Position numbers and translations under genes: made by a program. Below are positions 2,511 to 61,773 of a stretch of DNA of 64,000 nt, in pieces. How positions within the stretch are numbered: position 1 is the stretch's first letter; every line of letters starts with the position of its first letter. Below the pieces are notes generated by a model, which was not told where the DNA came from, searched no databases, and worked only from the letters and a program-made list of their open reading frames with translations. This DNA comes from a virus. The DNA lies in IMG/VR virus record IMGVR_UViG_3300001683_000001, positions 1 to 64,000 of that record. The stretch is one strand, 5' to 3'.

Positions 2511-2565
2511 TTGTTCCACAGAACATGCGCGATTCTCGCGTGCGTGCGCGCACCCACGCGCGAGG
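2511..2565. repeat. bipartite element (palindrome + RY hairpin)
   Basis: TTGTTCCACAGAACAT, 8 bp, CTCGCG...CGCGAG. Confidence 0.9.
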
Positions 2566-2706
2566 CGAGGTGATGACCGTGACTAATTCGCATGATTGGG
2601 AGTGGGTCAAATTGGCCGACCCGGCTCATCGAGGATTCCATCTCTGCAAGCGATGTGGGGTCCGAGTCATCGGCGGCATCAAGAGATTGATAGTGGGGTG
2701 TGTCTG

Positions 2707-3282
2707 ATGCCAAATGTGCTACACCCCCATGACTACGATGAGTGGAATCATGTGAAGGCAAGGGCGCAGTATTATACTCCGGCGAAAAGGACATCGAGCA
2801 TGCACAGGCAGAAGGAGATAGACACCATAGAGGGTCGCATACAGCGTAAGGAACTCATCCCGGTCACAGGACGCACCCGCGTCCCACGCAGAGGCATAGG
2901 ACGCATCGTAGTATCTCTCTGCGGGAGGGAGGTCCGAGTCTATCACCTGTCTTGGTCGGCGTTGTCTTGCGAATGTGGTGAGAAACATGAGAAGGCTGAT
3001 TTTTTCGTAGTGAACCCCAATCCCAATCCTCGCCCTAACGACAACCCCTACGATGACCGTCCATGCCTTGAGTGTGGAGAGGTGGTCGAGCAAATCGGAG
3101 TCGGACGACCTCGTATTGTTTGTGCGGGGGAGTGTGCGAGGTTGCTGAACATCAAACAGACCGCCTCGCGTAGTAGCGACGAGAGAGAGCGAGAGCGAGA
3201 GAGGGCAGGGAGAGCGAGAGCGAGAGCGAGGTCGGCGGCAAGAAGGGCTACGGCACATCTCAGGGTTGGTCTGCATGAGTGA
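2707..3282 (+). CDS. Zn-binding basic protein (CLECG...CAGEC, RE/RA-rich tail)
   Basis: TGATG coupling; Cys motifs. Confidence 0.55.
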   Translation: MPNVLHPHDYDEWNHVKARAQYYTPAKRTSSMHRQKEIDTIEGRIQRKELIPVTGRTRVPRRGIGRIVVSLCGREVRVYHLSWSALSCECGEKHEKADFFVVNPNPNPRPNDNPYDDRPCLECGEVVEQIGVGRPRIVCAGECARLLNIKQTASRSSDERERERERAGRARARARSAARRATAHLRVGLHE

Positions 3283-3463
3283 TACCATCGAGTATGAGTG
3301 CCTCACGGATGGGTGTGGGTGCAGGTGTAGGAGCATGACTTCCCTGAGGAACTTGGGGCTGGCTACCTACTCTCGCCACATCATGCACCCTCGCTCGACC
3401 AATTACATCATGTTCTGTCGCAAACACTTCTCGGACTACCTCCACCGACGGGGGTGGATGTGA
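3275..3463 (+). CDS. small Cys/His protein
   Basis: Overlapping start; CxxxxC/C/H pattern. Confidence 0.45.
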   Translation: MSDTIEYECLTDGCGCRCRSMTSLRNLGLATYSRHIMHPRSTNYIMFCRKHFSDYLHRRGWM

Positions 3464-3522
3464 TGTCCGATTCCACATGGACAAATACATCATTTGACCA
3501 TTCAAAGTTCAAGGTGGCCTGA

Positions 3523-4377
3523 ATGAGTTTTAAGAGCATAACGCGCGAGCGCAGGGCCATCGCCAAAGCACTCGATTACCTCGCTTCCACCGCCTCTCAG
3601 GTGTGGGGCTACACAGCACCGGGGTCGTGCGTGACGGAGGCCCACATCATCGCAAAGGTCCTCACCCGATACTTCGGCATTCCCTCGACCGTGATAGCCG
3701 CCGACATGAGCGCATGGAACTCTGCCTCCGAGGCGAATCAGATGGAGATAGAGCAACGGCTCAAGGACGGCCATCCTCCTGAGAAGATGTTCGATGACCT
3801 CGGTATGAAGAATGGTATATTCCTCCGCCTGAGTCACAAAGGCCACGACGGGACTGACCCCAATTACGAGGGTCGCACCAACCCTCGCCATTATGGCCCC
3901 GACGCAGAGGGGTATGACGGTCACACAATCGTCCAAACACCGAACTTCATCATTGACTCCACGCTTGGTCAAATCAACCGCGACGAGCGCATCCAAGCAC
4001 CGAAGGTCATGGTGTATGAGCGCAAGCACTTCGGCCCGTTGTCTGACGACTATTCATGGCTGATGAACGAGGTCCCTATCCCGACGGCTCCCGTAGGCGC
4101 GAGGCCGGTTGGCTACGATGCCGATGGGAACCTCCATCCCCTCGACATGACGAAGGTCAGAGTCGAGAGTTTGGGGATGCTGACTCCGCATTCAATCAAG
4201 CCTGAGAAGGTGGCTATCGTGAAGGTGGGAGAGGACACATGGTTGGCCCTCTGCCTACGCCCCGACATCTCGGTTGAGAAGGAGATGGAGATTCATCAAT
4301 TCGACAATGGATGGTTCGGGCAGACGAACGCCATGAGCCGCACCGTCGAGAAGCGTCTGCGGCGGTCGGGTGCATGA
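3523..4377 (+). CDS. hypothetical protein, possibly transglutaminase-like (GSC...GH...IIDST)
   Basis: 284-aa ORF. Confidence 0.6.
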   Translation: MSFKSITRERRAIAKALDYLASTASQVWGYTAPGSCVTEAHIIAKVLTRYFGIPSTVIAADMSAWNSASEANQMEIEQRLKDGHPPEKMFDDLGMKNGIFLRLSHKGHDGTDPNYEGRTNPRHYGPDAEGYDGHTIVQTPNFIIDSTLGQINRDERIQAPKVMVYERKHFGPLSDDYSWLMNEVPIPTAPVGARPVGYDADGNLHPLDMTKVRVESLGMLTPHSIKPEKVAIVKVGEDTWLALCLRPDISVEKEMEIHQFDNGWFGQTNAMSRTVEKRLRRSGA

Positions 4378-4655
4378 GTCGAAAGGTCAGGCGCAGAGAA
4401 GGGCGCATAGCCGTCGTCAAGTGGGCGATGGTTGGAATGGTGGGTCAAACTCATTTCACGGCCTCAGATTGCGCCTATCATATCAGGAATGCCGAGTATA
4501 TTCCGATGGTGTGCGGCATCCAGCGAAGTAGCGCGCATCTGTGGGCCTCCGCGCATCGCGTGGGGAACATCTTGACGGCGATGGCTCGGCGTGGTGAAAT
4601 CAAGATGGAGGCTCCACCGGGAGTCGCTCACATCTACACTCTGCTTGACGAGTGA
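4374..4655 (+). CDS. putative winged-helix DNA-binding protein
   Basis: FTASD...HRVGNILTAMARRGEI pattern is wHTH-like. Confidence 0.4.
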   Translation: MSRKVRRREGRIAVVKWAMVGMVGQTHFTASDCAYHIRNAEYIPMVCGIQRSSAHLWASAHRVGNILTAMARRGEIKMEAPPGVAHIYTLLDE

Positions 4656-4720
4656 ACCCTCGACCCCTCCGGTCGTAGGAATCTCAGACTACTTGAACTC
4701 CGCAAGGTCGAGGATTTTCC

Positions 4721-4918
4721 ATGTTCGGGAGAACATCCTCGATTCCACATCGAATCTCAGCGAGTTTTTTCTCGTTAAATCATCGAAAAAAAGATGTTTT
4801 TTTCTCGTTTTGTCGGTGGCTTTCAATGTTCCACAGAACAAATCGTCGGAATCAGGCTGAAATCGGGGTTCTGTGGAACATTTCGGAATCCCTCGCGTGC
4901 GCGCGCGCGGGGGCGAGG
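4721..4918. repeat. cluster of three palindromes + RY hairpin
   Basis: Copies at 4721, 4826 and 4866; CTCGCG tract from 4892. Confidence 0.9.
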
Positions 4919-4958
4919 TGGCGATTCTTTCAAGACGGTGGGAGTCAGAGGGGAGATT

Positions 4959-5238: not shown

Positions 5239-5670
5239 GTGTCTGCGCTGCGCGGTATTGGAGTGGTTAAATCGGTTATAGCCCTCTGCATCGTAATGAT
5301 GCTCGTCCTTGCTATCATGATGCCCCCTCTGCCTGAGCGAGTGATAATATGGTGGGACGAAGGTCAATGCTGGTGGTTCGATGGAACCATCGAGGACAAG
5401 TGGATTGAGGAAGGCGATGGGAATGCTCTGACGAAGGACTACCTGTTCCTCGTCAATGGAACTCTTAGTGACCTCGATGAAGACGGGATAACTCCGATGT
5501 TCGGCAACAACACGACCCGCATCTCGATGGTCATGCACGGCGATGCGTGGGACTACGATTGGTTTGAGGTCGGCATGTATTACGAGGGGTATGCGTGCGA
5601 CACCGTTCCCTTGCGAGAGGCGGTCATATCAGGGACACTTGAAATCCTGATTTGGGCGACAGATTCTTGA
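5239..5670 (+). CDS. membrane-anchored hypothetical protein
   Basis: N-terminal hydrophobic helix, acidic ectodomain. Confidence 0.55.
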   Translation: MSALRGIGVVKSVIALCIVMMLVLAIMMPPLPERVIIWWDEGQCWWFDGTIEDKWIEEGDGNALTKDYLFLVNGTLSDLDEDGITPMFGNNTTRISMVMHGDAWDYDWFEVGMYYEGYACDTVPLREAVISGTLEILIWATDS

Positions 5671-5694
5671 CGGTGGGGCTGAGTAGCAACGGGC

Positions 5695-8785: not shown

Positions 8786-8880
8786 ATGTTCCGCAGAACA
8801 TGAGCGAACCTCGCGCGTGGGTGCGCGCGCCCGCGCGTAGGCGGGAGCGCAGGTGAGTGCGAGCGAGTGGGCGACGCTCT
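8786..8880. repeat. bipartite element
   Basis: ATGTTCCGCAGAACAT, 8 bp, CTCGCG. Confidence 0.9.
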
Positions 8881-9180: not shown

Positions 9181-9181
9181 C

Positions 9182-9391: not shown

Positions 9392-9392
9392 C

Positions 9393-9938: not shown

Positions 9939-9954
9939 GGCACTACAAGGCAGG

Positions 9955-10026
9955 GGTTCCCTATATGAATGGATAGGGTAAATCAATGCTTTTTACCCTC
10001 AATATCGCATTTTCTGACCACGCCGC
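9955..10026 (-). promoter_or_regulatory. class-I (putative early) ~70-bp promoter, copy 1
   Basis: 32 bp identical to 13097-13128; TTCATATA 31 nt before ATG. Confidence 0.75.
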
Positions 10027-10033
10027 GACCCCT

Positions 10034-10118
10034 CTCGCGTGAGGCGCGGTCGCGGACGCTCGCCCTCGCATGCGCGCGCACCCCCACGCGCGAGAACCGA
10101 CCATGTTCCACAGAACAT
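10034..10118. repeat. bipartite element
   Basis: CGCGAG, 8 bp, ATGTTCCACAGAACAT (10103). Confidence 0.9.
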
Positions 10119-12948: not shown

Positions 12949-12949
12949 C

Positions 12950-13145: not shown

Positions 13146-13213
13146 GCGAACCCCGCGCCTCGCGCGCACACCTGCGCGCACACGCGAGGATGAGGCCGTG
13201 TTCTGTGGAACAT
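13145..13213. repeat. bipartite element
   Basis: CGCGAG, 9 bp, GTGTTCTGTGGAACAT (13198). Confidence 0.9.
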
Positions 13214-16183: not shown

Positions 16184-17835
16184 TGGCCGAAGTCGAGGTG
16201 GAGAAGGGACCCACCTGTCGGCAAGCGGATGAGTCCTACAATGAGTGCGTTAGCCGGAAGGTCAGCGAACTGATTGGGACCGAGGGAATGGAGTCAGACC
16301 AAGCCATCGCCGCAGCATCTTCGATGTGCGAAACCATGTGTAGTGAGAAGGCCGAGGCAGATTCAGAATCGTCAAGAACCCCGACGAGGGAGGAAGACGG
16401 CATGAGCCACGCTCTTGAGTTAGAGAACCCAACAGTCATCACGGACAAATCCAAGTTTGATTCTATCAGCATTGAGCCTACTGAGGTCGAGGTGCATTAT
16501 CGCATAGTATCGCCCTTCACAGTCGTTGAGAAGACCAACAAGGCTGGCGACAACGATGTGACCGTGACGGGACCTATCTATGTCGGGAGCGACGAGGTTC
16601 TCGACAGGCATGGGGAACTCGTAGATACGACCGCCATCATGGCCGCTTGGGAGGAATACCGGAAGAACCCCGTCATCCTCTACAACCACTCCAAGACCTA
16701 CGGAGTCATAGGCAAGATGGAGAGGGTCAAGATTGGCGAGTTCAACGAGATGCAGGTCCCGATAGGAACCGCCATCATTGACGGTGGCGAGAAGGACATC
16801 GTGAGGAAGATTCGCAAGGGCTTCCTCAAGGCGTTCTCCATCGGCTTCATCGCTCGCGGGATGGTCAAGGTCTGCGACGACGACGACGAGTGCTATCTCA
16901 GATTCACCGACATTGATTGGCTTGAAACTTCAATCGTAGATGTTCCGGCAAGTCCTGACGCACTATTCTCGGTCGAGAAGTCAGTTCATCAGGTGAATGT
17001 TCCACAGAACATGAACGACGAATGTGGATGTGGAAACGAATGTTGCGATGGAAAAGAGAAGGAGATGATTGCGCCCGATGTCTTCACCAGCGAGGAAGAA
17101 GCCCTTGCGCGAGCAGGGGAGATTGGATGTGCAGGTGTTCATGGGATGGAAGACGAGGGTGGCTACACGGTTTTCATGCCCTGCTCTACACATGATGAAT
17201 ACGAATCTACGATTGCCTCGGCTAAGAGCGAGTCGAATAGCGCATCGCTCAATAACCCCCTCGCAGCACCCGTTGAGTCAATGACCGCCGATGAGATGGA
17301 AATGGAAGTCGCCAATGAACAGGTGATTGAGATGTCTGAGGCTCCCGTAGAGGAAGTCAAAGTGGACATGATAGAAGACACAATTGAAAGTAAGGCTGTC
17401 GTAGAGGACCCCGAAGAAATCGAGGCCCCTGAACTACCGAAGCCTCTCGATGTTCTCTTGGATGTCGCAACATCTCTCAAGGCGATTGACGAGCGACTAA
17501 CCGCCGTCGAGTCATCTATCACACCACCGGCAGACGCGCCGGAGGTTGCAGAACTCAAGGCCGCACTCGCTGAGAAGGATGATGCACTCGCTACCATCGC
17601 TCAGGAGAAGGCTACCCAAGATGCTCAGGACGCATACGAAGCAGACATAACTGCCCGCGTCCAAGAAGTCCTATCCTCCTACGGCGTAGAAGCATCGGCA
17701 GAGCGCAAGACCGCAACGCCCGATGAGAAAGCACCTTCCACAGACATCACACGATTCGACCCACAACCCGAAACAAGCAAGGGCATGAACGGCCTTGCTA
17801 ATTGGTTAGAGGCCAACCTAATCGCAAGAGGCTAA
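16183..17835 (+). CDS. HK97-type prohead protease with C-terminal scaffold region
   Basis: DRHGE, PVILYNH, FSIGF, ETSIVDVPA; acidic coiled-coil C-terminus. Confidence 0.85.
   Translation: MAEVEVEKGPTCRQADESYNECVSRKVSELIGTEGMESDQAIAAASSMCETMCSEKAEADSESSRTPTREEDGMSHALELENPTVITDKSKFDSISIEPTEVEVHYRIVSPFTVVEKTNKAGDNDVTVTGPIYVGSDEVLDRHGELVDTTAIMAAWEEYRKNPVILYNHSKTYGVIGKMERVKIGEFNEMQVPIGTAIIDGGEKDIVRKIRKGFLKAFSIGFIARGMVKVCDDDDECYLRFTDIDWLETSIVDVPASPDALFSVEKSVHQVNVPQNMNDECGCGNECCDGKEKEMIAPDVFTSEEEALARAGEIGCAGVHGMEDEGGYTVFMPCSTHDEYESTIASAKSESNSASLNNPLAAPVESMTADEMEMEVANEQVIEMSEAPVEEVKVDMIEDTIESKAVVEDPEEIEAPELPKPLDVLLDVATSLKAIDERLTAVESSITPPADAPEVAELKAALAEKDDALATIAQEKATQDAQDAYEADITARVQEVLSSYGVEASAERKTATPDEKAPSTDITRFDPQPETSKGMNGLANWLEANLIARG
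16997..17012. repeat. palindrome in prohead protease CDS
   Basis: ATGTTCCACAGAACAT encoding NVPQNM. Confidence 0.85.
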
Positions 17836-21101: not shown

Positions 21102-21236
21102 ATGTTCTGTGGAACATCGCCCTCGCGTGCGCGTGCGCGCGAGCGCGTGAGGCCAAACTTCGATTCCAGCCTGATTTCGACGATTCGCCTCGCAGGTGTG
21201 TGGGGGCGCGGGCGCGTGTGTGCGCGCGGGCGCGAG
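21102..21236. repeat. bipartite element
   Basis: ATGTTCTGTGGAACAT plus two RY tracts. Confidence 0.9.
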
Positions 21237-22626: not shown

Positions 22627-24834
22627 GTGGCTGATGACGCCAAACTCAAGGTCATCATCGAAGGCGATTCAAAGGCTCTCATCGCCGCTGTTGGGGCGGC
22701 ATCAGCCGCGACGGCATCAGGCGGCAAGGACATCAAAGGCTCTCTCGCTTCGATAGGGAAGGCATTCACCGTAATGGGAATCGCGGCGGTGGCGGCAGGG
22801 ACGGCAATCACAATCGGATTCGTGAAGAAGTCGGTGAATGCGTTCATCGAGTTTGAGCAAAGCCTGACCCGCATCAACGCTGTGATGACCGAACTCGATG
22901 CAACCCAACGACAGACTCTCCAACAGAGCATCCGCGACATCGCCGCCGAATCACAATTCACAGCCCGACAGGTCACGGACGCGGCGACCCAATTGGTCTT
23001 CGCAGGTATGGCCTATGACGACCTCATCGGTGACGAGGACAAAGGCATCACAGGTGCAGTATCAGCCCTCGTTGATTTCGCCATCGCCGCTGGAACCCCG
23101 GTCGAAACAGCCGCCGAGATTTCGATGGCCGCGCTGAGTGGATTCGGCTTGGAAGTCAAGGAGATGACGAGGGTCATGGATGTGATGATGACCACCTACA
23201 CCTCCGCCTTCGTGACGCTTGAGGAACTCGGTCAGACGATGAAGTTCCTCGCACCCACAGCGAGGGCCGCTGGTATCTCAATCGAGGAAGCCGCAGCAGC
23301 AGCGGGCGCACTCGGAAATGCGGGCCTAAAAGGGACTATTGCAGGGACCGGGTTGCGTATGTCTATCAACAAATTACTCTCTCCGACTGACGATGCCCGG
23401 AAGGTCATGGACGAACTCGGACTCTCCTTCTTCACACTCACTCCGCGAGGCGAAACAGCGCAAGTCGCGTTGCAGGGATTGTCCGGTTCCTTGCGCCAAT
23501 CCACACGCGAATTAGAGGCCACCAAGTTTGCCGTCGAAGCACTCAACAACGAACTCTCAGACCTTTCAATCGAACAGCAGAGGAACAGCCTCGCCATCGC
23601 TGAGATTCGACAGCGAGCCGCGCGTCAGGGTAGAACCTTGACTGACCAAGAAATCAAGACGGTCGAGAGGCTCCAAATGGCGAATGAGGACTTGAGCATC
23701 CAACAGCAACGACTCGGTATAGAGCAAGCGGTAGCGACGAAGGCACAGGAGAAGAACTCTAAAACGGTGGCTGACCAAAAGCGGCTATATGGTAGCCTCA
23801 ATCGAGAGGTTCAGATGCAGACCACAGGACTAACAAGCCTCGTTGATGTGATTAACCAATTGGAGGCGGCAGGTGCTACCACATCACAGGTCTTGGAGAT
23901 ATTCTCTGTGCGCGGTGGAACCGCCATCATGGCTCTCTTGGGACAGGCTGATGCCTTCCGAGATTTGACCGAGGCTAACTACGAATCACAGGGAGCGTTG
24001 GCGGCATTCATTGAGGAAATCAAGACCTCGGTAGCCTTCGCTATGATGCAAGTCAAATCGAACTTTGAAGAAACCCAATTGGTCATCGGTGAAATCTTCG
24101 CAGACCTACTCACGATGGATGGTGGGGTTGCCGAGGCGATGAACGGAATCGCGGAGAGTATTCGCGCTAACAAGGAGGATTGGAAGGACTTGGCTAAATC
24201 AATAGGCGACACCATCGTCCCGTTGCTTTTCGCAATACCCGCCCTCATCGACGGCATCACACGCGCATTCGCAAACATGAGGCCATTCCTCAATGTAATC
24301 GTAGGGCTGTTCAAACTTCTCGGAATCATTCTATGGCCCGTCTTCAAACTCCTTGAGGGAATCGCATGGGTAGTGGAAAAACTCACCGGCTCAGGCAAAG
24401 CAGGTAGCGTGGCTGCTTCGGCAGGTGCGGGGGTGGCAACAGGAGCCGCTATCGGTAGTATCATTCCGGGTGTCGGCACAGCCGTCGGAGCCGTTGTTGG
24501 AGGTGTTGCCGGAACCATCGGAGCGTTGCACGAAGGCGGAGTCACGACGGGGCCAAGTGTGAATCTCATTGGAGAGGCTGGCCCGGAGGCCATTATCCCA
24601 CTCGACAAACTTCCCCGAATTATCGCAGATGCCGGATATGTTCCACAGAACATGGCCGCATCCCCGCGCGGGGGGCCAGCGCAATCGGCAGGTGGATTAA
24701 CCATCAATTTCGGAAGCATCTCTATCTCAGGTGGAACCAACATGACGAGTGCATCAATTCGTGAAATCATGCGAACCGAGATGCCGAAAATCGTGAAGGA
24801 CTCCTACGCAAGTGGAGCAAGGGGAGTGGTCTGA
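22627..24834 (+). CDS. tape measure protein (TP901-type core)
   Basis: FEQSLTRINAV, LGQTMKFLAP, GLKGTIAGTGLR, GEAGPEAIIPL. Confidence 0.9.
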   Translation: MADDAKLKVIIEGDSKALIAAVGAASAATASGGKDIKGSLASIGKAFTVMGIAAVAAGTAITIGFVKKSVNAFIEFEQSLTRINAVMTELDATQRQTLQQSIRDIAAESQFTARQVTDAATQLVFAGMAYDDLIGDEDKGITGAVSALVDFAIAAGTPVETAAEISMAALSGFGLEVKEMTRVMDVMMTTYTSAFVTLEELGQTMKFLAPTARAAGISIEEAAAAAGALGNAGLKGTIAGTGLRMSINKLLSPTDDARKVMDELGLSFFTLTPRGETAQVALQGLSGSLRQSTRELEATKFAVEALNNELSDLSIEQQRNSLAIAEIRQRAARQGRTLTDQEIKTVERLQMANEDLSIQQQRLGIEQAVATKAQEKNSKTVADQKRLYGSLNREVQMQTTGLTSLVDVINQLEAAGATTSQVLEIFSVRGGTAIMALLGQADAFRDLTEANYESQGALAAFIEEIKTSVAFAMMQVKSNFEETQLVIGEIFADLLTMDGGVAEAMNGIAESIRANKEDWKDLAKSIGDTIVPLLFAIPALIDGITRAFANMRPFLNVIVGLFKLLGIILWPVFKLLEGIAWVVEKLTGSGKAGSVAASAGAGVATGAAIGSIIPGVGTAVGAVVGGVAGTIGALHEGGVTTGPSVNLIGEAGPEAIIPLDKLPRIIADAGYVPQNMAASPRGGPAQSAGGLTINFGSISISGGTNMTSASIREIMRTEMPKIVKDSYASGARGVV
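24638..24653. repeat. palindrome in tape measure CDS
   Basis: ATGTTCCACAGAACAT encoding YVPQNM. Confidence 0.85.
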
Positions 24835-31112: not shown

Positions 31113-31137
31113 GAAATCAGGCTGGAATCGCACTTTC

Positions 31138-31191
31138 CTCGCGTGTGCGCGCACACCTGCGCGCGAGAGTCGCTCATGTTCTGCGGAACAT
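31138..31191. repeat. bipartite element
   Basis: CTCGCG..CGCGAG, 8 bp, ATGTTCTGCGGAACAT (31176). Confidence 0.9.
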
Positions 31192-32379: not shown

Positions 32380-32445
32380 ACGCATTCGACGCGCTCTATT
32401 GGCCTCTTTTCGACGAGGGTGAAATGGGTGTTTTCGGGAGGTCCT

Positions 32446-32510
32446 TCGCGCGTGCGCGCGCGTGGGGGTGCGCGAGCGCACGCGAGATTCGCCCATGTTC
32501 CATAGAACAT
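32446..32510. repeat. bipartite element
   Basis: CGCGAG, 8 bp, ATGTTCCATAGAACAT (32495). Confidence 0.9.
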
Positions 32511-37509: not shown

Positions 37510-37563
37510 ATGTTCTGTGGAACATGCCCGGTCCTCGCGTGAGCGCATGCGCGCGCGCGTGAG
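37510..37563. repeat. bipartite element
   Basis: ATGTTCTGTGGAACAT, 8 bp, CTCGCG. Confidence 0.9.
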
Positions 37564-37576
37564 GCGCAAGGGACCT

Positions 37577-39019: not shown

Positions 39020-39095
39020 CGCGAGCGCATACCCGCGCGTGCGCGCCCACGCTCGCGCGCACACGCGAGAGAATCGCTCATGTTCCACAGAACAC
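39020..39095. repeat. bipartite element
   Basis: RY tract, CGCGAG, 10 bp, ATGTTCCACAGAACAC (39080). Confidence 0.9.
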
Positions 39096-44970: not shown

Positions 44971-45103
44971 CTCGCGCGCCCTCGCGTGCGCGAGGCAAAC
45001 CTCGATTTCAGCCCAATTTCGCAAGTCCCTCACGCGCGCGCGCATGCGCTCACGCGAGGACCGGGCATGTTCCACAGAACATTTCCCCTGTTCGGGGGAA
45101 CAC
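44971..45103. repeat. bipartite element with two palindromes
   Basis: Copies at 45067 and 45088 (CTGTTCGGGGGAACAC). Confidence 0.9.
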
Positions 45104-46613: not shown

Positions 46614-49280
46614 ATGACGCGCGTCCCGTTCCTGATTGTGTCCATAGACTACACCGAGGACCCGACCTTCCTCACGCACCTGCGGGTGAAAGGACTCGAT
46701 GGTCAGAACCATGTTTTGACGGTCGAGAATTGTGTCCCTCGGTTTTGGACTGAGAAGAACCCGTCCAGCATTCCGAACCTCCCTCCGTTGGTGAAGTCAT
46801 GGAAGCCGTCCGGGTTGCGGAGCGTCACCGGCGCAGAACTGTTTGAGGTTCGTGTGGAGAACCTCTCAGACCGGCGTGAGATGAAGGAGTTCTTCTACCC
46901 CCATTACTCAGCAGATGTAGCATGGCGGTCGCTGGTCAGATGGATTTACGATTGGACCGCTGTGATTGATGTGGATGAGGCCGCACTCAAGGGTCCCAAC
47001 AATCTCCGTCCTCTGCACATCACACCGAGCGAAACTGACTACTCGGAGTTCACTCTCGATGTCCTGTGGTTCGACATCGAAACCGAGGATTCTCTCGACA
47101 TGAAGACCTCACCCAAGCGAGTCGTCAGCATCGCCATCTTGGACAGCGTGACGGGCATTCACGAAATCGGCACGACCTGTCCCACCAGCGAACGACAGGT
47201 GCAGAGATTCCTCGCATCTCAAGAGGCATTGGAGTCTATCGTAGAACACACGGCCCCTATCCCTCCCATCCCTACCGACAAGGTGGTTGTGAAGTCGTTC
47301 TCCTTCGATGACCCCGACACCAACGAGGCGGCTCTCCTATGGTGGTTCAAGGAGAGGGTCGAGGCATTGGACAGGGACCTACTTGGAGGACAGAACATCC
47401 TCGGCTACGACATCCCCTATCTCAAGAACAGGAGCCGGAGAATGCGACGGGAGATGAGTCGTCGCTACTACGATTCTGTGCCTGTCTTTCACCGGTTCCC
47501 GAATCTCGATTCGATTACTCGACGACCCTTATTCGATTCTAAGCGAGCGTATGCCGAGCAGGTGCGTGGGGAACTCACATCAGGTTCTCTCGTTTGGATG
47601 TCTGAGCAGGTGCTTGGCTATGGCAAGGTTCCGAGGACTCGCATCACCGAACTCATGGTGCGCGACCCCATGATGCTCGCCATCTACAACGCTTGGGATA
47701 ATGTCTGCGTTGCTCGGTGTATGGACGAACTGAATCTCATCCCATTCTACCTCGCCAAAGCCGCCTTCAACAGTTCCCTGATTCAGAACATCCACTCCAA
47801 CATGATGCTCATCGAGGACACGATGGGACACCTGCTGATGAGGCAGAACATGGTGATGCCTTCCCTCGATGTCGTGCGCGACCGGATGGAGGTCGCAGAG
47901 GTAGAGGGAGGCTTCGTCATGGAGAACCCAAGCGGGGTCTTTCTGAACGCCTTTGAACTCGACAACGCGACCGAATATCCGGCGCAGATAATCAACGGCA
48001 ATTTCTGTCCCTCTACCATCGTCAGTAAGGACGACTACCCCGACGGGTTCCCCTTCCCTGTGACCAGCACTCCATCAGGTCGCTACTACCGTCGTGACCG
48101 TGACGGAATCATCCCCGGAGTCCTGAGGACCCTGACGGCTCAACGCCGACAGACTCAGAGCGAGATGAGGAAGGCCCTCGCTGACGATGATGATGAGATG
48201 GCGAACATCCTCGACATGAAGCAGAGGGTGATGAAGGAATCGAGTAATTCGTTCTACGGCGTCATGGCGTCCGGTTCGACCGAGAAGACGAGGGGCCGAC
48301 CCTTCCGGCTCGTCAATCCCGCCATCGCCTCGGACATCACCGAAGGGGCGCGACTTCACAACGAGTGGAATCGGAAGAAAATCGAATCAACGATTCTACT
48401 GTTCTCAGCCGAAGGAATCGAGCCGAATGTTCCACAGAACATGCCCGACCTCGCGGGCGCGCACGCGAGGCTCGACGGATTTCCACTTGAGTTCCGAGTG
48501 ATTGGACAGGACACAGATTCGTGCAAGGTGTTCATCTCCAACCAGCCCGAAGCCGAGGAAGCGATTCGTCCATTCACCGAGTCCGACATCACATCTTCGG
48601 CCAACCTATTATGCCTCATACTGAACGGAACCTACGACGAGTTCGTGCAGACCACATACGGCATCGAACGCAACGAGATGTTGATGGTCAAGCCGGACGC
48701 ATACTACGAGAGATATTTCGCATGGGGAGTGAAGAAGCGATATGCCTATCGAGAGTTCAACGGCAAGGATGGATTCCGGGGAGTCGAGATACGCCGGTCG
48801 TCTGTTCCACAGGTAGTGAAGACAGCCCAACACCGAGTATTCAAATCAATCCTGAATGGATGCGACAAGCGGGAACTCAACGAGATTCTCAGGGACATCC
48901 ACGATACCATCCTCGATGTAGAGAAGACACCCAATATCCACTTCGGACAACCGTTCGGAATCAAGACGGCAGGGACCCAAGCACACAAAGCCGCGATGTG
49001 GTCGAACGACCATCTCGACACCGACTTCGACATAGGCGACAAGCCGACGCTGTATGTCGCCAAGTCTGCTTCGACATCCCTTCCCTCTAACCGAGTAGTC
49101 GCTATCGTGTTTGGGGAGGACCCGTCGTCGTTCGGAATCATGGTAGATAGAGAGAAGTCGTTCGCCAAACATTTCACGAACTCACAATCTTGGTCAGGCA
49201 TCCTCGGTGCATTCAACACCTCATGGGAATCTGCGCTTGCAGGTATGAGCCAATCCTCCCTCGTAGAGTGGTTCACATGA
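46614..49280 (+). CDS. polB: family B DNA polymerase
   Basis: FDIET, NILGYDIPYL, YNAWD, DNATEYP, KxxxNSFYG, DTDS, KKRY; start fixed by promoter 46583. Confidence 0.92.
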   Translation: MTRVPFLIVSIDYTEDPTFLTHLRVKGLDGQNHVLTVENCVPRFWTEKNPSSIPNLPPLVKSWKPSGLRSVTGAELFEVRVENLSDRREMKEFFYPHYSADVAWRSLVRWIYDWTAVIDVDEAALKGPNNLRPLHITPSETDYSEFTLDVLWFDIETEDSLDMKTSPKRVVSIAILDSVTGIHEIGTTCPTSERQVQRFLASQEALESIVEHTAPIPPIPTDKVVVKSFSFDDPDTNEAALLWWFKERVEALDRDLLGGQNILGYDIPYLKNRSRRMRREMSRRYYDSVPVFHRFPNLDSITRRPLFDSKRAYAEQVRGELTSGSLVWMSEQVLGYGKVPRTRITELMVRDPMMLAIYNAWDNVCVARCMDELNLIPFYLAKAAFNSSLIQNIHSNMMLIEDTMGHLLMRQNMVMPSLDVVRDRMEVAEVEGGFVMENPSGVFLNAFELDNATEYPAQIINGNFCPSTIVSKDDYPDGFPFPVTSTPSGRYYRRDRDGIIPGVLRTLTAQRRQTQSEMRKALADDDDEMANILDMKQRVMKESSNSFYGVMASGSTEKTRGRPFRLVNPAIASDITEGARLHNEWNRKKIESTILLFSAEGIEPNVPQNMPDLAGAHARLDGFPLEFRVIGQDTDSCKVFISNQPEAEEAIRPFTESDITSSANLLCLILNGTYDEFVQTTYGIERNEMLMVKPDAYYERYFAWGVKKRYAYREFNGKDGFRGVEIRRSSVPQVVKTAQHRVFKSILNGCDKRELNEILRDIHDTILDVEKTPNIHFGQPFGIKTAGTQAHKAAMWSNDHLDTDFDIGDKPTLYVAKSASTSLPSNRVVAIVFGEDPSSFGIMVDREKSFAKHFTNSQSWSGILGAFNTSWESALAGMSQSSLVEWFT
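48427..48470. repeat. complete bipartite element inside polB
   Basis: ATGTTCCACAGAACAT, 7 bp, CTCGCGGGCGCGCACGCGAG. Confidence 0.9.
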
Positions 49281-49887: not shown

Positions 49888-50078
49888 GTGTTCGTTGGAA
49901 CATCGGTGAAACCGGAGCAACACCACGATTCTCGCACTCCCTACGGGGCCTTTACGAATCTGAATATCTCAATTCCCTCAATGGGACCCTTCATAGGTGG
50001 GGCCGTAGTCGAGCGGAGTGCCGCGAGAGAGGCGGCAGAACCAAAACCGAATGAAAAACCAATAAGGAGAATGAAAAT

Positions 50079-51820: not shown

Positions 51821-52697
51821 CCTGTTGGGAAGCAAGGCCACCCACCAACCTCTCCGAGCGTGGTTGAAGACATGGAGCAACGGCGTGAGGCCAACACCGA
51901 ATATCGTGATAGTCACAGGTGCGAGTGGGGTAGGCAAGACGACGCTCGTCACCACGCTATCTGAGGCGGTTGGACTTCACCCGCAGATGTGCGAGGTCGG
52001 GAACCTCAAGGCATCACTCGCCCAAGCCAATACACCCACCTTCCTCGGTCAGCGTAGGTTGGCTATCTTGGATGACTCGTCGTTCCTCTCCCGCCGTGAG
52101 TGGAAGGACTTGGAGAAGACCCTCTCCCTCAACCCCATCCCACTCGTCCTCATCGCTGAGAGCGAGCGCGATGTGGCGTGGCCCATACGCAGGGGTGCGC
52201 TGGTGATTCGGACACCACCCCCGACCCGACAGAACCTCATCGAACTGCTGGCTCTCCACACCGACCGACTCGGCCTTCCACACGACGAGGCTGATTGGAA
52301 TCAGATTGCTGATGTCGCCTCGACTTGGCGAGCCGCGATTCTGAGGCTTCGGACTTCCCCACACACAGGCGGGCGCGCCATCGCGCGCGAGGGAGCGCGA
52401 TGTTCTGCGGAACATTCGCACGATGCTGGAACCACCGAGGAACGGAGAATCCTCGCTGGTCATCACGCTGGTCGAACCATCTCGGTTCACCCGATGGCTA
52501 TCCTCTCAGCCGCCGAGTTCAACGGGGCGAATCCGAATCATGTGGAAGTCGGGAATCGCCTCCACTCTTGGTCGTGGGAGTCGGACGACCTGACGAGGGT
52601 CGCCCACGACTACCTGACCACTCTGCGAGCCTCGACCCAAGACCGAGTTCCATTCCGTCAGCGAACCCTGCGTGGTTCCGTGAAGCGACTCAGGTGA
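51807..52697 (+). CDS. divergent/truncated RFC large subunit-like ATPase
   Basis: P.DLLG...L..WL..W, GASGVGKTT, ILDD, PLVLI. Confidence 0.6.
   Translation: MKPSDLLGSKATHQPLRAWLKTWSNGVRPTPNIVIVTGASGVGKTTLVTTLSEAVGLHPQMCEVGNLKASLAQANTPTFLGQRRLAILDDSSFLSRREWKDLEKTLSLNPIPLVLIAESERDVAWPIRRGALVIRTPPPTRQNLIELLALHTDRLGLPHDEADWNQIADVASTWRAAILRLRTSPHTGGRAIAREGARCSAEHSHDAGTTEERRILAGHHAGRTISVHPMAILSAAEFNGANPNHVEVGNRLHSWSWESDDLTRVAHDYLTTLRASTQDRVPFRQRTLRGSVKRLR
52374..52415. repeat. bipartite element inside the RFC-L-like CDS
   Basis: CGCGAG, 8 bp, ATGTTCTGCGGAACAT (52400). Confidence 0.85.
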
Positions 52698-52794: not shown

Positions 52795-52909
52795 GCTCGC
52801 CTCCGCACTCGCCTCCGCACTCGCACTCGCCCTCGCGCGCTCCCTCGCCCTCGCGTGCGCGCGTGGGCGCGCACCCACACGCGAGAACCGGGCGTGTTCC
52901 ACAGAACAT
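52795..52909. repeat. bipartite element preceded by CGCACTCGCCTC tandem repeats
   Basis: GTGTTCCACAGAACAT at 52894. Confidence 0.9.
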
Positions 52910-54057: not shown

Positions 54058-55269
54058 ATGCAGTTCAGTATCGAAGACTTCGATGATGTATGCAACCACT
54101 TCGGATTCGACACCTATCCACGCACAGTCGGCAACCCTCGGCAGAGCCTCGTCTATGCGAGTGAAGAAGCCTACCTCAAGTTCTCCAAATGGAACGGGAA
54201 CTCCCCCTGCTTCATCAGCACCGGGGGCTACTCCAACATCCAATTCGACATAGGCGGCAAGCAATCTCCGAGGACAATCCACCACACTCTGACCTTCTTC
54301 GACTTCGACCACGAAACGAAGCCTGAGAATGCCTTCGCGGATGCACAGCGATTGTCTGAGTTCCTTCGGGAGATGGACATCGCTCATTGGGTGCAATACT
54401 CAGGGTCGAAGGGCTACCACCTGTTCATCATCCATGCTCCGACCAAGTTCAAGTTCGACTATCGAGATGGGAGCAACGAGGCTCTCAAGCGGATTCTCCA
54501 TCAGACCCAAGACTACCTCCGTCAGACCATCGGCCTCAACACCCTCGACGAGCAGACGATGGGCGACCCCAAGCGACTGTGCCGATTCCCATACTCACTC
54601 CATGTGGATAGACATGGGAAGGCATCGGGTCATCATGCACTTCCGGTTCCGGTTGAGGAACTCGATGTGGTGAATCACGACGACATCGTGATGCGCGCAT
54701 GTTCTGTGGAACATCCCGAATTGCCTGAGATTATCGGACGACGACTGACCCTCCGAGAGTTCATCTCAGAATTGGGCATCCGACTCGACGCACCCGAAAC
54801 AAAGATTCGGCCTGTCGTCGGAGGTGACTTCGACTTCGGGGATTCTGATAAGGAGGCGTTCCGATTCATCGCGTCACTTGAGCATAGGTGCATGGGCGTG
54901 GTGAATGAACTCAGACGACGCAACCCACCACACAAAGCGAGAGTCTTCGCCGCCCTGTTCGCCAAGACACTCGGCCTTCCTCAATCGGCGTTTGAGAAGG
55001 TGTGGATGGAGATGGGAACCAGCATGGGATATGTGGACTTGCACAACCACGAACACCGAGCCTATCAGATGGCGACCATCTTCGACAACCCGAACTACCA
55101 TTCCTTCCCCACTTGCACCACCCTCAAGGCGAACGGATGCTGTGTGGGTGAGATATGCCCTCGCTATGCTGAGATGGAGCGCATCGACTATCAACCGAAG
55201 CAAGTGGAGCGCAAGTGGTCGAGCAAGAGTGGGAGCAACGAAGACGCCGAAATATGGGAAGATGTTTGA
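54058..55269 (+). CDS. priS: archaeo-eukaryotic primase, PriS fused to PriL C-terminal Fe-S domain
   Basis: FFDFD, SGSKGYH, D..RL.RFP.S.H; C...PPH...CxTL...CC....CP. Confidence 0.85.
   Translation: MQFSIEDFDDVCNHFGFDTYPRTVGNPRQSLVYASEEAYLKFSKWNGNSPCFISTGGYSNIQFDIGGKQSPRTIHHTLTFFDFDHETKPENAFADAQRLSEFLREMDIAHWVQYSGSKGYHLFIIHAPTKFKFDYRDGSNEALKRILHQTQDYLRQTIGLNTLDEQTMGDPKRLCRFPYSLHVDRHGKASGHHALPVPVEELDVVNHDDIVMRACSVEHPELPEIIGRRLTLREFISELGIRLDAPETKIRPVVGGDFDFGDSDKEAFRFIASLEHRCMGVVNELRRRNPPHKARVFAALFAKTLGLPQSAFEKVWMEMGTSMGYVDLHNHEHRAYQMATIFDNPNYHSFPTCTTLKANGCCVGEICPRYAEMERIDYQPKQVERKWSSKSGSNEDAEIWEDV
54699..54714. repeat. palindrome in primase CDS
   Basis: ATGTTCTGTGGAACAT preceded by ATGCGCGC. 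Confidence 0.85.
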
Positions 55270-56108: not shown

Positions 56109-56151
56109 ATGTTCGCGGGAACATCCGCGCTCTCGCACGCGCACACGCGAG
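56109..56151. repeat. bipartite element
   Basis: ATGTTCGCGGGAACAT, 7 bp, CTCGCA...CGCGAG. Confidence 0.85.
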
Positions 56152-56277
56152 GGAAAATCACCCCAATCAGGTTGGAATCAACGATTCCGCCACATCTACT
56201 CCACCCCCTACGAACCTGACTATCCAACCAAACTGAATACAACCGTTCATAAGGAACCTAATGACCCCGTAGGGGTG

Positions 56278-58708: not shown

Positions 58709-60460
58709 ATGAGTAGAGCCGACCCGCCTCGGATGGGATGGTGGGTGAATGACGGGAAGCATCGTAGTCGTCATCAGAATAATACTGAAGATTTTCCACT
58801 CAGTCTTGCAGACCTTCACAATGACGGCTGCACCTCCATCATTACTGACGGGTTAGACAAGTTCAGCAGGTTCGCTGGAACCAATTTCAGTTCCCAATCG
58901 CTCGTCACGCTTGAGGACCGTGACTACGAACTCGGACATTCTATACCTCACAGAATCGAGCCGGGTGGTGGGTCTGCGTTCGTATGGGGATGGTCGGACC
59001 ACGACGGGGAAGGGCAGAATAACATGGCTCAGACGGAGCCGCTTTCGCAGGGGCGCGAAGGTGCGTATGTGAGGCCGGAACTCCGCTACATCTCTTGCTC
59101 CGACGCGCTTCACAACGCCGCTGACTTCCGCGCATGGCTCGCGCGATTGGGCGATACCCCCTCAGGAATTGGGAACCGACAGGAGATGATTGGACACATC
59201 CAACGACACGCCTCCGCGCTTGTTGATAATCTCCCTAAACTCGGTCCGTCCAGCGGAGGGTCATGGCCGGATAGAATCAAACTCAATGTCGCACATCATC
59301 AGGGTGTCCTGTTCAACGACATCTCGATTGAAACGGGTGGTGATAAAATATGGTCGCCGGAAGGGAATTGGAACTCCGACATCTCGTTCGGTGAGGACGG
59401 CAAGGTCGTAGTCCTAACTACGGACCGCAACACCAAAAAAGCGAGGTTTGGATTCCCTGCTGACTACGAGGCCGAGAGGCAATTGGCGAACTACTGTGCT
59501 AAGGAAACTCACAACCTAATGGAACGCTCCCCAATGCACCTATCAAGGACGGGAACTTGGCGTTGCACTCAGCAAGCATTCAGAGAGGTTGCTATGACGA
59601 GTCGAATGATGCAAATCCTCGCCTCTCCCGACCGAGGTGGGAGGGCGGATATACAGAAGGCCAATGTCCATCCTCGCCCTCACATATCCACGGTTGGCGC
59701 ACTCATGCACATCTACGAGATGATGAGGATAGTCCATGTCGAGAAGTCCGCCGACGGAACCGGAGCGACCGCCTACCTCGCGTCTTCGATGGGTGAGTTC
59801 ATCAGCCCCGCTATGGAGCCGGATGGGTTCGGTGGAGAAGCGTATGGTCAGAGCCTCCCGCTATTCTGCATCCCGGTGAATATGGTAGGGGGCCGAGATG
59901 ACTTGACCTTCGGAGATTGGATAGTCGTCGGGACCCATGCTATTCCATCAGGCTCACACGCGGTCGAGATTCTGACCGCTGTGCATGGAGAGAACGGAGT
60001 CTATGATGTGATGAAGCCCAACGGGACACATAGGACGAACACCGTCCTCGTCGGTATTCGTGATAGGGTCATCAACCTCCCCGACAGGACCCTCACCAAG
60101 CACTACTTCTCACCGCCGGAATTGATGCACATGGCTGTCGCCTCTGAGCGAGTCGTCACCACTCATACTGTTGATGAAACTCAAGTCAAAATGGATGCGA
60201 GGAATATGAGAAAGAAGTGGGTTCCGACATGGAAGGATAACCGAGGGAGGAAAACCCTCAATCTCGCAGGGAGGAAGAAGGTCAGGCTTCACGATGTCGT
60301 GCGTTGCTCGACCTGCAACGGGAAGGTCGAAATCAAGGCCGACATCGGGAACACCGCCATCGTCGGCAAGTGTCCTCATTGTAGCGAGGACTCCGTTCAC
60401 TTCCCTCACCTCGTCATGGGTGCAGACATTCCCAAATCGCTACCGGCCCGTTCTCAATAA
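58709..60460 (+). CDS. hypothetical protein with C-terminal Zn ribbon (start uncertain)
   Basis: 583-aa ORF; CSTC...CPHC. Confidence 0.6.
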   Translation: MSRADPPRMGWWVNDGKHRSRHQNNTEDFPLSLADLHNDGCTSIITDGLDKFSRFAGTNFSSQSLVTLEDRDYELGHSIPHRIEPGGGSAFVWGWSDHDGEGQNNMAQTEPLSQGREGAYVRPELRYISCSDALHNAADFRAWLARLGDTPSGIGNRQEMIGHIQRHASALVDNLPKLGPSSGGSWPDRIKLNVAHHQGVLFNDISIETGGDKIWSPEGNWNSDISFGEDGKVVVLTTDRNTKKARFGFPADYEAERQLANYCAKETHNLMERSPMHLSRTGTWRCTQQAFREVAMTSRMMQILASPDRGGRADIQKANVHPRPHISTVGALMHIYEMMRIVHVEKSADGTGATAYLASSMGEFISPAMEPDGFGGEAYGQSLPLFCIPVNMVGGRDDLTFGDWIVVGTHAIPSGSHAVEILTAVHGENGVYDVMKPNGTHRTNTVLVGIRDRVINLPDRTLTKHYFSPPELMHMAVASERVVTTHTVDETQVKMDARNMRKKWVPTWKDNRGRKTLNLAGRKKVRLHDVVRCSTCNGKVEIKADIGNTAIVGKCPHCSEDSVHFPHLVMGADIPKSLPARSQ

Positions 60461-60501
60461 CCATAATCATCAAGGACTGTGGAACTTCCGATTGGAAGTC
60501 C

Positions 60502-60867
60502 ATGCCGCCGAAACGAATCCCGAAGCCACTCAAGAAGGCCATCCTCGGTTCGCTATTTTCCAGCACTATGAATGACTCCCTTCCCTCTGCTGCCGTAGCC
60601 GACCGAGTGAATAACAACCCACAAGTTCCAGCGAGGATGATGAAGACCCCGAAGCAAATGGCGTATCTACTCAATCAGATGATACGGGAATATCCCGGCA
60701 TCATCGAAACTCAGTTCCTCAATCGGAACGGAATGAGCCGACATGGAGTCAGGAGATTCCGCAAGGGCTACCTCCCAATCAAGGGCGTCACACTTGCCGA
60801 AGCCGAGCAAGCCGTAGGGGTCACTCGGAAGAAGCAGAATCAGGCCAAGAACCCCGATTCAGAATAA
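60502..60867 (+). CDS. basic putative wHTH protein
   Basis: AILGSL...SAAVADRV...TPKQMAYLL. Confidence 0.5.
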   Translation: MPPKRIPKPLKKAILGSLFSSTMNDSLPSAAVADRVNNNPQVPARMMKTPKQMAYLLNQMIREYPGIIETQFLNRNGMSRHGVRRFRKGYLPIKGVTLAEAEQAVGVTRKKQNQAKNPDSE

Positions 60868-61033
60868 ACGCCCGTAGAGCGCGTCGAGGGTATTTGGGCT
60901 GTATGGGGGCCTCGGAGGGCATAGACGCGCTCTATCACGCCGTAGGGAGGGTGTATGGGGCTGTTCAACGCCGCCTCCTACCCATCGAATCTCACAGAAT
61001 GGTGAATAGCCTCAAGAGTCCCTCAACAATCCA

Positions 61034-61333
61034 ATGGACACCATGATGGATTACAGCATCGTTTGGACAACGGCAGGGAAGGAGATGGTCGGCCACGACA
61101 TTCACGGTGACGAACTCATCAAGGTCACTACGGGTGGAACCCATTGGGATTTCATCTTCATTCGTCATGGAGGATTTGGGAAGGTCAGAGTAGGAGCAGG
61201 TTGTCGCTACAACCCTCTCGCTATGATTGAGCAGATGCACACCCATCTATTGAACGAGGACAGCATTGAAAACGACATCGAGATGAGCGACATCATTGAC
61301 TTCTCAAAATCCCTCAGACGCAGGTGGGGATGA
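61034..61333 (+). CDS. hypothetical protein
   Basis: TGAATAG box ~31 nt upstream. Confidence 0.55.
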   Translation: MDTMMDYSIVWTTAGKEMVGHDIHGDELIKVTTGGTHWDFIFIRHGGFGKVRVGAGCRYNPLAMIEQMHTHLLNEDSIENDIEMSDIIDFSKSLRRRWG

Positions 61334-61611
61334 TGCTCACTTGGGTCAGAGCAATTGGAGCCGCGACCCATCTATTCGCATACGGCTTGAATATGGAACT
61401 CCTTGCTCATCTCGTTGAGCATGAAGACAGGTGGGTGATGAACGCTGGCGGGAGGCAATTCACGGTAGCAGGGAATGGCTGTGCCGACCCTGTTGCATTC
61501 ATCGAGCAGATGGTATCTCCGACTTTGCCGAAGACCATTCACATCGAGGATTCGTGGATAGTTCAGTTCTACCCTCCCAATGGTGAATCGTGGGAAGTTT
61601 GGGGCGAGTGA
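61330..61611 (+). CDS. hypothetical protein, weakly similar to the upstream neighbour (G.GC..P.A.IEQM)
   Basis: ATGA overlap. Confidence 0.5.
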   Translation: MMLTWVRAIGAATHLFAYGLNMELLAHLVEHEDRWVMNAGGRQFTVAGNGCADPVAFIEQMVSPTLPKTIHIEDSWIVQFYPPNGESWEVWGE

Positions 61612-61656
61612 TTTCGCTTCCTAACATCGGCCTGATAACGGTGGGATTTCAACAAA

Positions 61657-61773
61657 ATGTTCTGTGGAACATGCCCGTCCCTCGCGGGCGCAGGTGCGCC
61701 CCCGCGTGCGCGCGCGCGCGTAGGCGCATGTCCGAGCGGATGCCCGCCCACGCACGCAGGGCGCGAGCGCGAG
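61657..61773. repeat. bipartite element with long (CG)n tract
   Basis: ATGTTCTGTGGAACAT, 8 bp, CTCGCG. Confidence 0.9.

Follow-up and report, generated by a model that had tools for sequence, protein, structure and literature searches.

Cluster A mycobacteriophages carry 20-30 dispersed repressor sites, the stoperators, per ~50-kb genome, most of them away from promoters and with a consensus specific to the subcluster (PMC6550527). That consensus co-varies with the protein that reads it, and syntenic sites differ between related phages (PMC6550527, PMC9283540). Here we analyse a dispersed repeat in a tailed virus of marine archaea, so classed by its gene set, in the first 64 kb (the window) of the IMG/VR viral genome IMGVR_UViG_3300001683_000001, which is 80,646 bp in all, has 56% G+C and carries a 91-bp terminal repeat. 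The repeat is a 16-bp palindrome, ATGTTC-N4-GAACAT (P), which often adjoins a GC-rich tract (H) and in places a satellite motif (S). Sequence comparison gives good support for P being the recognition site of a co-evolving, twofold-symmetric, sequence-specific reader.

Repetitive extragenic palindromes (REP), the bacterial interspersed mosaic elements (BIME) and the Rickettsia palindromic elements are GC-rich imperfect palindromes past the 3' ends of genes; some, such as BIMEs with their IHF site, include a protein-binding motif, and the Rickettsia elements insert in frame into protein-coding genes. The unit of P and H differs from these in being much shorter (about 45-60 nt), in having no RAYT/Y1 transposase, and in its conserved core, a 16-bp palindrome that co-evolves in place between lineages. 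In T4-type phages, promoter-early stem-loops (PeSLs) are repeated intergenic cassettes of a GC-rich stem-loop with adjoining promoters (Arbiol et al. 2010, PMC2839356); they cluster at plastic loci, among them the surroundings of the DNA polymerase gene, and recombination between them shuffles gene modules (PMC2839356). A PeSL combines a promoter and a terminator hairpin without a separate palindromic protein site, which the P-H modules have. Here, a stem-loop-prone tract accompanies 17 of 27 copies, a P-H module lies within 150 nt upstream of only 6 of the separate promoter-like motifs, P also occurs alone and inside genes, and mini-circles are a feature described for PeSLs. HF2 is a tailed archaeal virus with a polymerase group akin to the one found in magroviruses. 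Its repeats are intergenic, oriented promoters of 29-58 bp with BRE/TATA elements and a mapped start site; they keep their positions among relatives and are thought to be bound by viral regulators (Russ et al. 2021, PMC8707807). P, in contrast, has no AT-rich box, is palindromic, lies at variable distances from starts and is also found inside genes. Such repeats go without mention in the magrovirus and Poseidoniales-virus literature that we examined.

A palindrome and its dialects

A preliminary description of the window, made from the letters alone, had listed 22 palindromes, and all of them match P, 15 exactly and 7 with 1-2 mismatches. The comparison with shuffled sequence that it proposed as a check gave a clear answer: 15 exact copies are found in the window where 0.01 are expected, a number equalled in 0 of 100 shuffles, and 25 copies with up to two mismatches where 2.85 are expected. 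Three matches can be added to the earlier list, at 49888 and 38768 (1 mismatch each) and at 32826 (2 mismatches), the last of which is probably due to chance. The whole genome has 17 exact matches, where a reversed control has 0, and about 28 if as many as two mismatches are allowed. Of 27 copies, about 20 fall between genes, although only ~16% of the genome is non-coding, and copies typically begin 8-115 nt past the stop codon of the upstream gene. The largest gap between sites in the window is 6,538 bp, in agreement with the ~6.5 kb given before; regular spacing, by contrast, found no significant support (coefficient of variation 0.75 against 0.95 for random placement, P value about 0.1).

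Conservation in relatives, a further sequence-based check, gave a divided result: the exact palindrome is missing, with no copy in five contigs of 49-59% PolB identity, and in its place the related viruses have palindromes of their own at similar density. All share a format of two 7-nt half-sites around 2 nt (7-2-7), in which P of the studied virus reads ATGTTCY-RY-RGAACAT. The other dialects are CTATTGA-NN-TCAATAG (G003, L026, L028 and L029), CTACTGR-NN-YCAGTAG (G001), RTGTCGA-NN-TCGACAY (L160, L161 and L193), ATGTTGA-NN-TCAACAT (L162-164, L191, L192 and L194) and ATATCGA-NN-TCGATAT (L218), six in all with that of the studied virus. In G003, 29 sites with up to two mismatches are found where 0.5 are expected, and site density across the dialects is 0.28-0.69 per kb. 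Single-step changes at positions 3-6 link the half-sites into a network, in which that of the studied virus is one or two steps from ATGTTGA. Since the relatives' marks are equally dense yet spelled differently, the putative protein reader appears to be co-evolving with its sites.

The most telling comparison is between sister viruses, L193 on one side and L192 and L194 on the other, which share 76-78% DNA identity and in which most replication proteins are 80-91% identical. Two sites lie at orthologous positions, with 47/60 and 44/60 flanking positions identical, and both differ between the dialects by the identical symmetric pair of changes, C5>T with G12>A. These paired substitutions indicate that sites have been re-tuned in place to a changed twofold-symmetric specificity, which neither chance nor a purely structural role nor a selfish repeat that transposes would readily explain. 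Together with the similar density of the six dialects, they uphold the earlier suggestion of a dimeric, site-specific protein at P.

Symmetric double substitutions would also preserve pairing in a transcript, and an alternative is that P (a 6-bp stem with a 4-nt loop) and H act as RNA hairpins in 3'-end protection, processing or attenuation, the lineage dialects then being stem covariation. Most copies are inter-cistronic, just past stop codons, and H folds somewhat better than shuffles in most copies, as such a role would have it. However, the stems within one genome share one sequence, and this absence of covariation between copies argues for sequence-specific recognition and not structure alone. 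Moreover, P is seen in either orientation relative to the coding strand, its outer-pair variants (G-T against A-C) have no strand bias, an Rfam scan gave no match, and fold z-scores are weak for many H tracts. A tRNA scan of the sequence was also negative. We consider an RNA-level element improbable.

Exact P has 20 single chance-level matches in IMG/VR, among which no second virus of this dialect was found, and the bipartite unit has 0 matches in 185,579 prokaryotic species genomes. In prokaryotic genomes exact P gave only scattered, single, chance-level matches in unrelated taxa among the matches listed, in a scan that was not aimed at candidate hosts, and these matches point to no host. A search of JGI metagenomes with the bipartite pattern returned L035 (2.1 kb), a true close relative, and L036, a GC-rich contig that is unrelated; the phage collection held no close DNA relative.

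The GC-rich tract, cassettes and seams

The preliminary description had joined P to H as a bipartite element with a phase of 8 bp. The phasing was borne out: CTCGC lies 7-10 nt from P in 15 window copies, at exactly 8 nt in 10 of them, and only 4 nt away in a further copy at 21102. Genome-wide, it is found 4-10 nt from the edge of P in 17 of 27 good copies, 11 of them at exactly 8 nt. Because CTCGC and GCGAG number just 172 and 163 in 80.6 kb, this phasing is far beyond chance. The 8-nt linker is semi-conserved (GSSCGRWY), and H itself, bounded by CTCGCG...CGCGAG, has about 80% G+C. The claimed alternation of purines and pyrimidines is likewise present, at 0.68-0.81 in 17 of 17 tracts against 0.51 in shuffled sequence and 0.48 in the genome, and in this H is like known Z-DNA-forming tracts; perfectly alternating runs, however, are only 10-20 nt long. 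Hairpin stability is just modestly above that of shuffles (z -0.8 to -4.3), so alternation is the more consistent property.

H is no obligatory phased partner of P, being missing from 10 of the 27 copies here and rare or absent in relatives. Nearly all G003 palindromes are without it, and in G001 a CCTCGCG...CGCGAGG tract stands beside only 2 of 14 palindromes, leaving 12 with none. In L035, which is 76-89% identical to the studied virus, both P sites and their half-sites are kept, H at the 8786 locus is ~200 nt long instead of ~40 nt through GCAGGTGCGT-like repeats, and the other H, too, has a different interior. This absence from most relatives' sites, with the variable length and content in L035, points to H as a fast-evolving, slippage-prone accessory, and we read its alternation as a property of a (CG/CA)n-type slippage tract and not as proof of a Z-DNA switch. 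The earlier model, in which a dimer at P phased 8 bp from a tract switching to Z-DNA or a cruciform forms a chromosome-organising or supercoil-insulating device, would account for the exact phasing, the semi-conserved linker, the alternation in every tract and the two G001 tracts beside palindromes of another dialect. Set against the many copies without H, its freely changing length and content between close relatives and its short perfect runs, this model seems to us very doubtful indeed.

The satellite S was likewise confirmed in part. Copies are present at 4850, 21161 (minus strand), 31115 (given before as 31113) and 56165, while that at 45003 is a more diverged relative. In G003 the companion of the palindrome, in place of H, is AAACTTG, which lies 20-40 nt away in 23 occurrences, against about 2 expected; in that genome (L030-L034) AAACTTG and CAAGTTT number 58 and 48 (about 23 expected), and these copies are distributed over the two strands and lie chiefly within genes.

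Several P-H units lie where gene order differs between viruses. Between the inverted modules at 8786 and 10103 stands a cassette of three minus-strand genes (8890-9938), one of which encodes a zeta-toxin/AAA_33-type kinase (E 3.5e-13), and in L035 the cassette is swapped for one unrelated ORF (open reading frame). A 7.5-kb block encoding RFC, a 94-aa protein, PolB, a MoxR-like ATPase and a second clamp-loader subunit lies between two P junctions (45172-52697); in G003 (63456-70413) and G001 the RFC-PolB block stands behind the ERCC4 gene, and the two junctions are there a single P cluster. Judged from these arrangements, the repeats mark seams of module exchange in these genomes, and both the cassette replacement between inverted units and the block between P junctions resemble what has been described for PeSLs.

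The units also seem to have been copied. Those at 37510 and 45067 are identical over exactly P, linker and H (55 nt) in unrelated flanks, and in PolB the whole unit is a 12-13-residue in-frame insertion that is missing from four relatives. The tape-measure-like gene has about 6+3 extra residues at its P relative to G003; in PrimPol, P takes the place of the relatives' YRPxY codons with length unchanged; and in the prohead protease/scaffold gene it lies within a variable Cys-rich linker. Intragenic copies thus sit in tolerant protein regions. Conservation of P at PrimPol codon ~216 in all lineages was considered and holds only in part: the YRPxY codons at this place tend to form palindromes, and in the ATGTTGA, RTGTCGA and ATATCGA lineages the PrimPol site is 25-35 codons away. 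A DUF3721 Cys-Gly-rich motif (CGCG...CC) at 17013-17060 adjoins the P of the protease/scaffold linker, and the orthologous linker of G003 carries G003's own palindrome.

Copying of this kind raises the question of whether P-linker-H is a selfish mini-element, spreading by copy-and-paste like Rickettsia palindromic elements, REP/REPIN or miniature inverted-repeat transposable elements and merely tolerated. The in-frame insertion in PolB, the 55-nt identity in unrelated flanks and the enrichment in intergenic DNA and at rearrangement seams are what such an element would leave behind. Transposition does not explain, however, how orthologous sites switch dialect in place by symmetric substitutions, and many copies, such as that in PrimPol, are P alone without insertion. 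No consistent target-site duplications were seen around H or P-H; no match to the Y1/RAYT transposase (PF01797) was found in the genome in a search whose controls matched, although the host may encode one; the genome has no integrase; and the bipartite unit is missing from the prokaryotic genomes searched. The evidence argues against chance and against a purely selfish repeat, and we regard the latter as very improbable.

Candidate readers and the role of the sites

The reader is most likely a virus-encoded, dimeric DNA-binding protein, with a specificity that, to judge from the dialects, changes fast between related viruses; a change in the protein would have led to the re-tuning in place of roughly 30 genome sites. 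Alternatively, a protein of a Poseidoniales-like host could bind P, with dialects that track host lineages and not viral genes. In keeping with this, no viral DNA-binding candidate was found, and the viruses that differ in dialect range widely in G+C (37-56%), which suggests different hosts. However, the sister viruses differ in dialect despite similar G+C and closely similar replication proteins, and in prokaryotic genomes exact P is at chance level among the matches listed and the bipartite form is absent, in scans not aimed at candidate hosts. A host factor seems an improbable reader.

The search for a viral protein eliminated several candidates. The 264-aa product of 53001-53795, downstream of a P cluster, has no Pfam or PHROG match; its predicted fold (pLDDT 93) identifies it as a PCNA/beta-clamp sliding clamp (fold matches E 1e-11), which rules it out as the reader. 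The AAA_16 protein whose gene carries the P at 52400 was considered as an Orc1/Cdc6 protein and proved to be the second subunit of clamp-loader type; nothing resembling Orc1/Cdc6 was found. Two small proteins of 94 and 85 aa have no dialect pattern. The P0001 family, represented here by the gene at 77910-78512 of the genome (L157:13910-14512), comprises a 190-aa small-terminase-like protein with an N-terminal helix-turn-helix (HTH)-like region, a helical hairpin (coiled coil) and an acidic tail. Hints of a small terminase are weak (phrog_6902, E 0.009 in 3 of 24 members), and its language-model neighbours are Terminase_5, DUF2280 and HTH_20 at 0.91. At 11 or more loci, from four or more dialects, a P site lies 30-170 nt past the P0001 stop codon; as the reader, the protein was rejected, with a putative recognition helix that does not co-vary with dialect and a model that gives no significant fold match. 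In this genome, microsatellites of the types (CA)n/(GT)n and (CG)n lie at 78.6-79.0 kb, within the 625-nt gap after the P0001 gene.

A further suggestion of the preliminary description was a link to chromosome partitioning, through the 8-mer TGTTCCAC, which equals half of the Bacillus parS site; parS, like P, is a palindrome of 16 bp. We reject this link. A six-frame search of the whole genome for ParB_N (PF02195) gave no match at E<=0.01 while its controls matched, the geometry of P is 6-4-6 or 7-2-7 and not 8-0-8, about 28 sites are dispersed instead of a few near the origin, and the site sequence differs between the sister viruses.

The sites must also be set against transcription. A strongly conserved promoter-like motif of the plus strand, TTCAAGACGGTGGG, precedes an ATG by 16-18 nt at about 17 positions, the majority of which lack P. 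It belongs to a family YTTCAAGACGGTGGGAG (variants TTGATAACGGTGGG and TTCATAACGGTGGG), the core of which, ACGGTGGG, is found 17 times on the plus strand and 2 times on the minus strand. Because it usually lies 16-18 nt ahead of an ATG, this family is probably the main viral promoter, a TATA-like box with near-leaderless starts. The position of P relative to the motif is variable, so P would be neither a core promoter nor a fixed-position operator; this, and its occurrence inside genes, agrees with the earlier view that it is not a simple transcription operator. Two minus-strand gene groups share an upstream module of ~30 nt, GGTCAGAAAATGCGATATTGAGGGTAA (within 9939-10100 and 12949-13160, in minus-strand sense), and a related GATATTGAGAAG precedes the terminase gene; these may be a second promoter or ribosome-binding class.

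By analogy with the stoperators and with PeSL/REP-like cassettes, we suggest tentatively that genome-wide, stoperator-like sites built into boundary cassettes are the best explanation of the data. The reader would bind across the viral genome and act as a roadblock or boundary mark for transcription, as in cluster A mycobacteriophages. Most sites here would be part of a cassette of P, an 8-nt linker and the slippage-prone GC-rich stem-loop H, placed past stop codons and upstream of TTCAAGACGGTGGG, where P and H would terminate a transcription unit or insulate it from the one that follows. Because they are repeated sequence, the cassettes would be copied as units and used as recombination seams, and copying and recombination would in turn account for the cassette swaps, the block transposition and the in-frame insertions into tolerant loops. 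The likeness to stoperators lies in the about 28 dispersed sites without fixed relation to the promoter-like motif, and in the distinct consensus sequences of related viruses (six dialects, switching in place), a likeness seen for the sites alone.

Several observations weigh against this proposal. A stoperator is an asymmetric site of 13 bp that a monomer reads, and its orientation follows that of transcription, whereas P is a perfect 16-bp palindrome with H on one side or the other and has no such asymmetry or orientation. At 61657, P lies just downstream of the promoter-like motif, so that even the order of the two is not fixed. In G003 most sites are deep inside genes, as is often the case among the relatives, and evenly spread, and to block transcription permanently at such places would come at a high cost. 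Among about 70 ORFs scanned with Pfam and PHROGs, none had a DNA-binding domain of regulator type, hence no repressor was found, and integrase (PF00589) was not found in the genome, which leaves a role in lysogenic immunity unsupported. The host, moreover, is archaeal: archaeal termination normally proceeds via T-tracts and not hairpins, and no T-tract follows H.

The main rival is that P is a mark on the viral DNA itself, read for packaging, for replication initiation or initiator titration, for control of recombination or exonucleases in the manner of a two-way Chi, or for protection from a nuclease that the virus or the host encodes. If only the number of sites per genome matters, sites would settle wherever the sequence tolerates them, and this explains the constant density (0.3-0.7 per kb in all dialects) and the evenly spread intragenic sites of G003 better than transcriptional boundaries do. 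Coding sequence has been bent to hold sites, by the insertions in PolB and the tape-measure-like gene and by the codons replaced in PrimPol; AT-rich tracts are surrounded by clusters of 2-3 P (4721-4881 here, 59278-59552 in G003 and 21285-21402 in G001); the small-terminase-like HTH gene is followed by a site in the many loci noted above; and both the replisome and a PD-(D/E)XK nuclease are virus-encoded. On the other hand, the HTH-like helix of that terminase-like protein does not co-vary with dialect, neither ParB nor Orc1/Cdc6-like proteins were found, spacing is not regular, and the preference for intergenic DNA just after stop codons, which a pure DNA mark would not need, is explained less well. 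We consider a DNA-level mark possible, if rather unlikely, and still favour, with due caution, stoperator-like sites within boundary cassettes.

Sites, genes and implications

Coordinates are collected in the table below. Nearly all genes are on the plus strand. Pfam and PHROGs scans identified structural and packaging genes (portal, prohead protease, major capsid, tape-measure and large terminase), together with an archaeal-type replisome: a family B polymerase (PolB), an RFC-like clamp loader, a primase-polymerase (PrimPol) and an XPD-like helicase. Further members of this replisome set are an ERCC4-HhH nuclease, the PD-(D/E)XK nuclease and the MoxR-like ATPase (AAA_5), near which one protein has weak matches to the VWA domain. 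The same gene set has been reported for magroviruses (PMC5434244). An ORF of 2,836 residues, which begins in the window (61829-64000) and runs on to 70339 of the genome, consists mostly of collagen-like repeats (CCGGAGCAACCGGA-type nonamers) and has no P site across 8.5 kb; its G003 counterpart carries GGACCTACAGGA repeats.

Table. Palindrome sites and promoter-like motifs, in window coordinates (lengths between elements in nt; P exact unless mismatches are given)
Elements in order	Position	Context
P (1 mismatch), 8 nt, H (2535-2564)	2511..2564	intergenic, then GAGGTGATG start context
Cluster: P 4721 (exact), AT-rich tract ~4770-4815, P 4826 (1 mismatch), S 4850-4865, P 4866 (2 mismatches), 10 nt, H 4892-4917	4721..4917	promoter-like motif at 4929-4942
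P, 8 nt, H	8786..8846	left border of minus-strand accessory cassette 8890-9938; kept in L035
H, 8 nt, P	10065..10118	inverted relative to 8786 copy; right border of cassette 8890-9938; kept in L035
H, 9 nt, P (1 mismatch)	13159..13213	divergent region upstream of portal gene
P alone	16997..17012	inside prohead protease/scaffold gene; reads NVPQNM; variable Cys-rich linker
P, 4 nt, H (21122-21143), S (21161-21176, minus), second H (21189-21236)	21102..21236	promoter-like motif at 21247
P, 8 nt, mini-palindrome CCCCGCGCGGGG	24638..24673	inside tape-measure-like gene; reads YVPQNM
S (31115-31130), H (31138-31167), 8 nt, P	31115..31191	
H, 8 nt, P	32441..32510	~70-100 nt upstream of large terminase gene
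P, 8 nt, H	37510..37564	55 nt identical to inverted copy 45028-45082
GC tract/H, 10 nt, P (1 mismatch)	39030..39095	promoter-like motif 57 nt downstream
Second H (44971-44994), diverged S, H (45028-45058), 8 nt, P 45067, degenerate P 45088	44971..45103	junction of rearranged replication block
P, 7 nt, H	48427..48469	inside PolB gene; in-frame insertion
P (1 mismatch), without H	49888..49903	directly past stop codon
H, 8 nt, P	52368..52415	inside second clamp-loader-like ATPase gene; reads RCSAEH
Long CTCGCN-periodic GC tract/H, 8 nt, P (1 mismatch)	52796..52909	upstream of sliding-clamp gene; other junction of rearranged block
P alone	54699..54714	inside PrimPol gene; reads CSVEH
P, 7 nt, H (56132-56151), diverged S (56165-56180)	56109..56180	between ERCC4-HhH nuclease and VWA genes
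P, 8 nt, long GC tract	61657..61767	P 11 nt past promoter-like motif 61632-61645; upstream of collagen-like gene
Promoter-like motif	4929-4942, 5664-5677, 21247-21260, 22072-22085, 34194-34207, 35970-35983, 39153-39166, 41197-41210, 45142-45155, 46583-46596, 51566-51579, 52971-52984, 61632-61645	also at 73.6 and 74.2 kb of the genome

The hosts of magrovirus-like viruses are among the most abundant archaea of the surface ocean; the viruses themselves are uncultured, and we know of no regulatory or chromosome biology described for them. Six single-step dialects, re-tuned between sister viruses, are the signature of a strongly selected DNA-protein recognition, and they allow these viruses to be grouped by motif into specificity classes. 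The dialects also offer a natural series of specificity switches for a protein that would co-evolve with ~30 sites, and P of two dialects (ATGTTCTGTGGAACAT and ATGTTGACTTCAACAT) provides defined DNA baits for pull-down of the reader. That the repeats lie at seams of module exchange matters for how the mosaicism of metagenomic viral genomes is read. On the less probable account, a fast-evolving reader with about one 16-bp site per 2-3 kb, all sites being re-tuned whenever its specificity changes, would let a virus tell its own DNA from that of the host or of co-infecting viruses. Such a self-marking system would be a viral counterpart of Chi sites or of uptake-sequence dialects, with H as a lineage-specific structural accessory, and could serve in the packaging, replication and recombination, or protection of the virus's own DNA.

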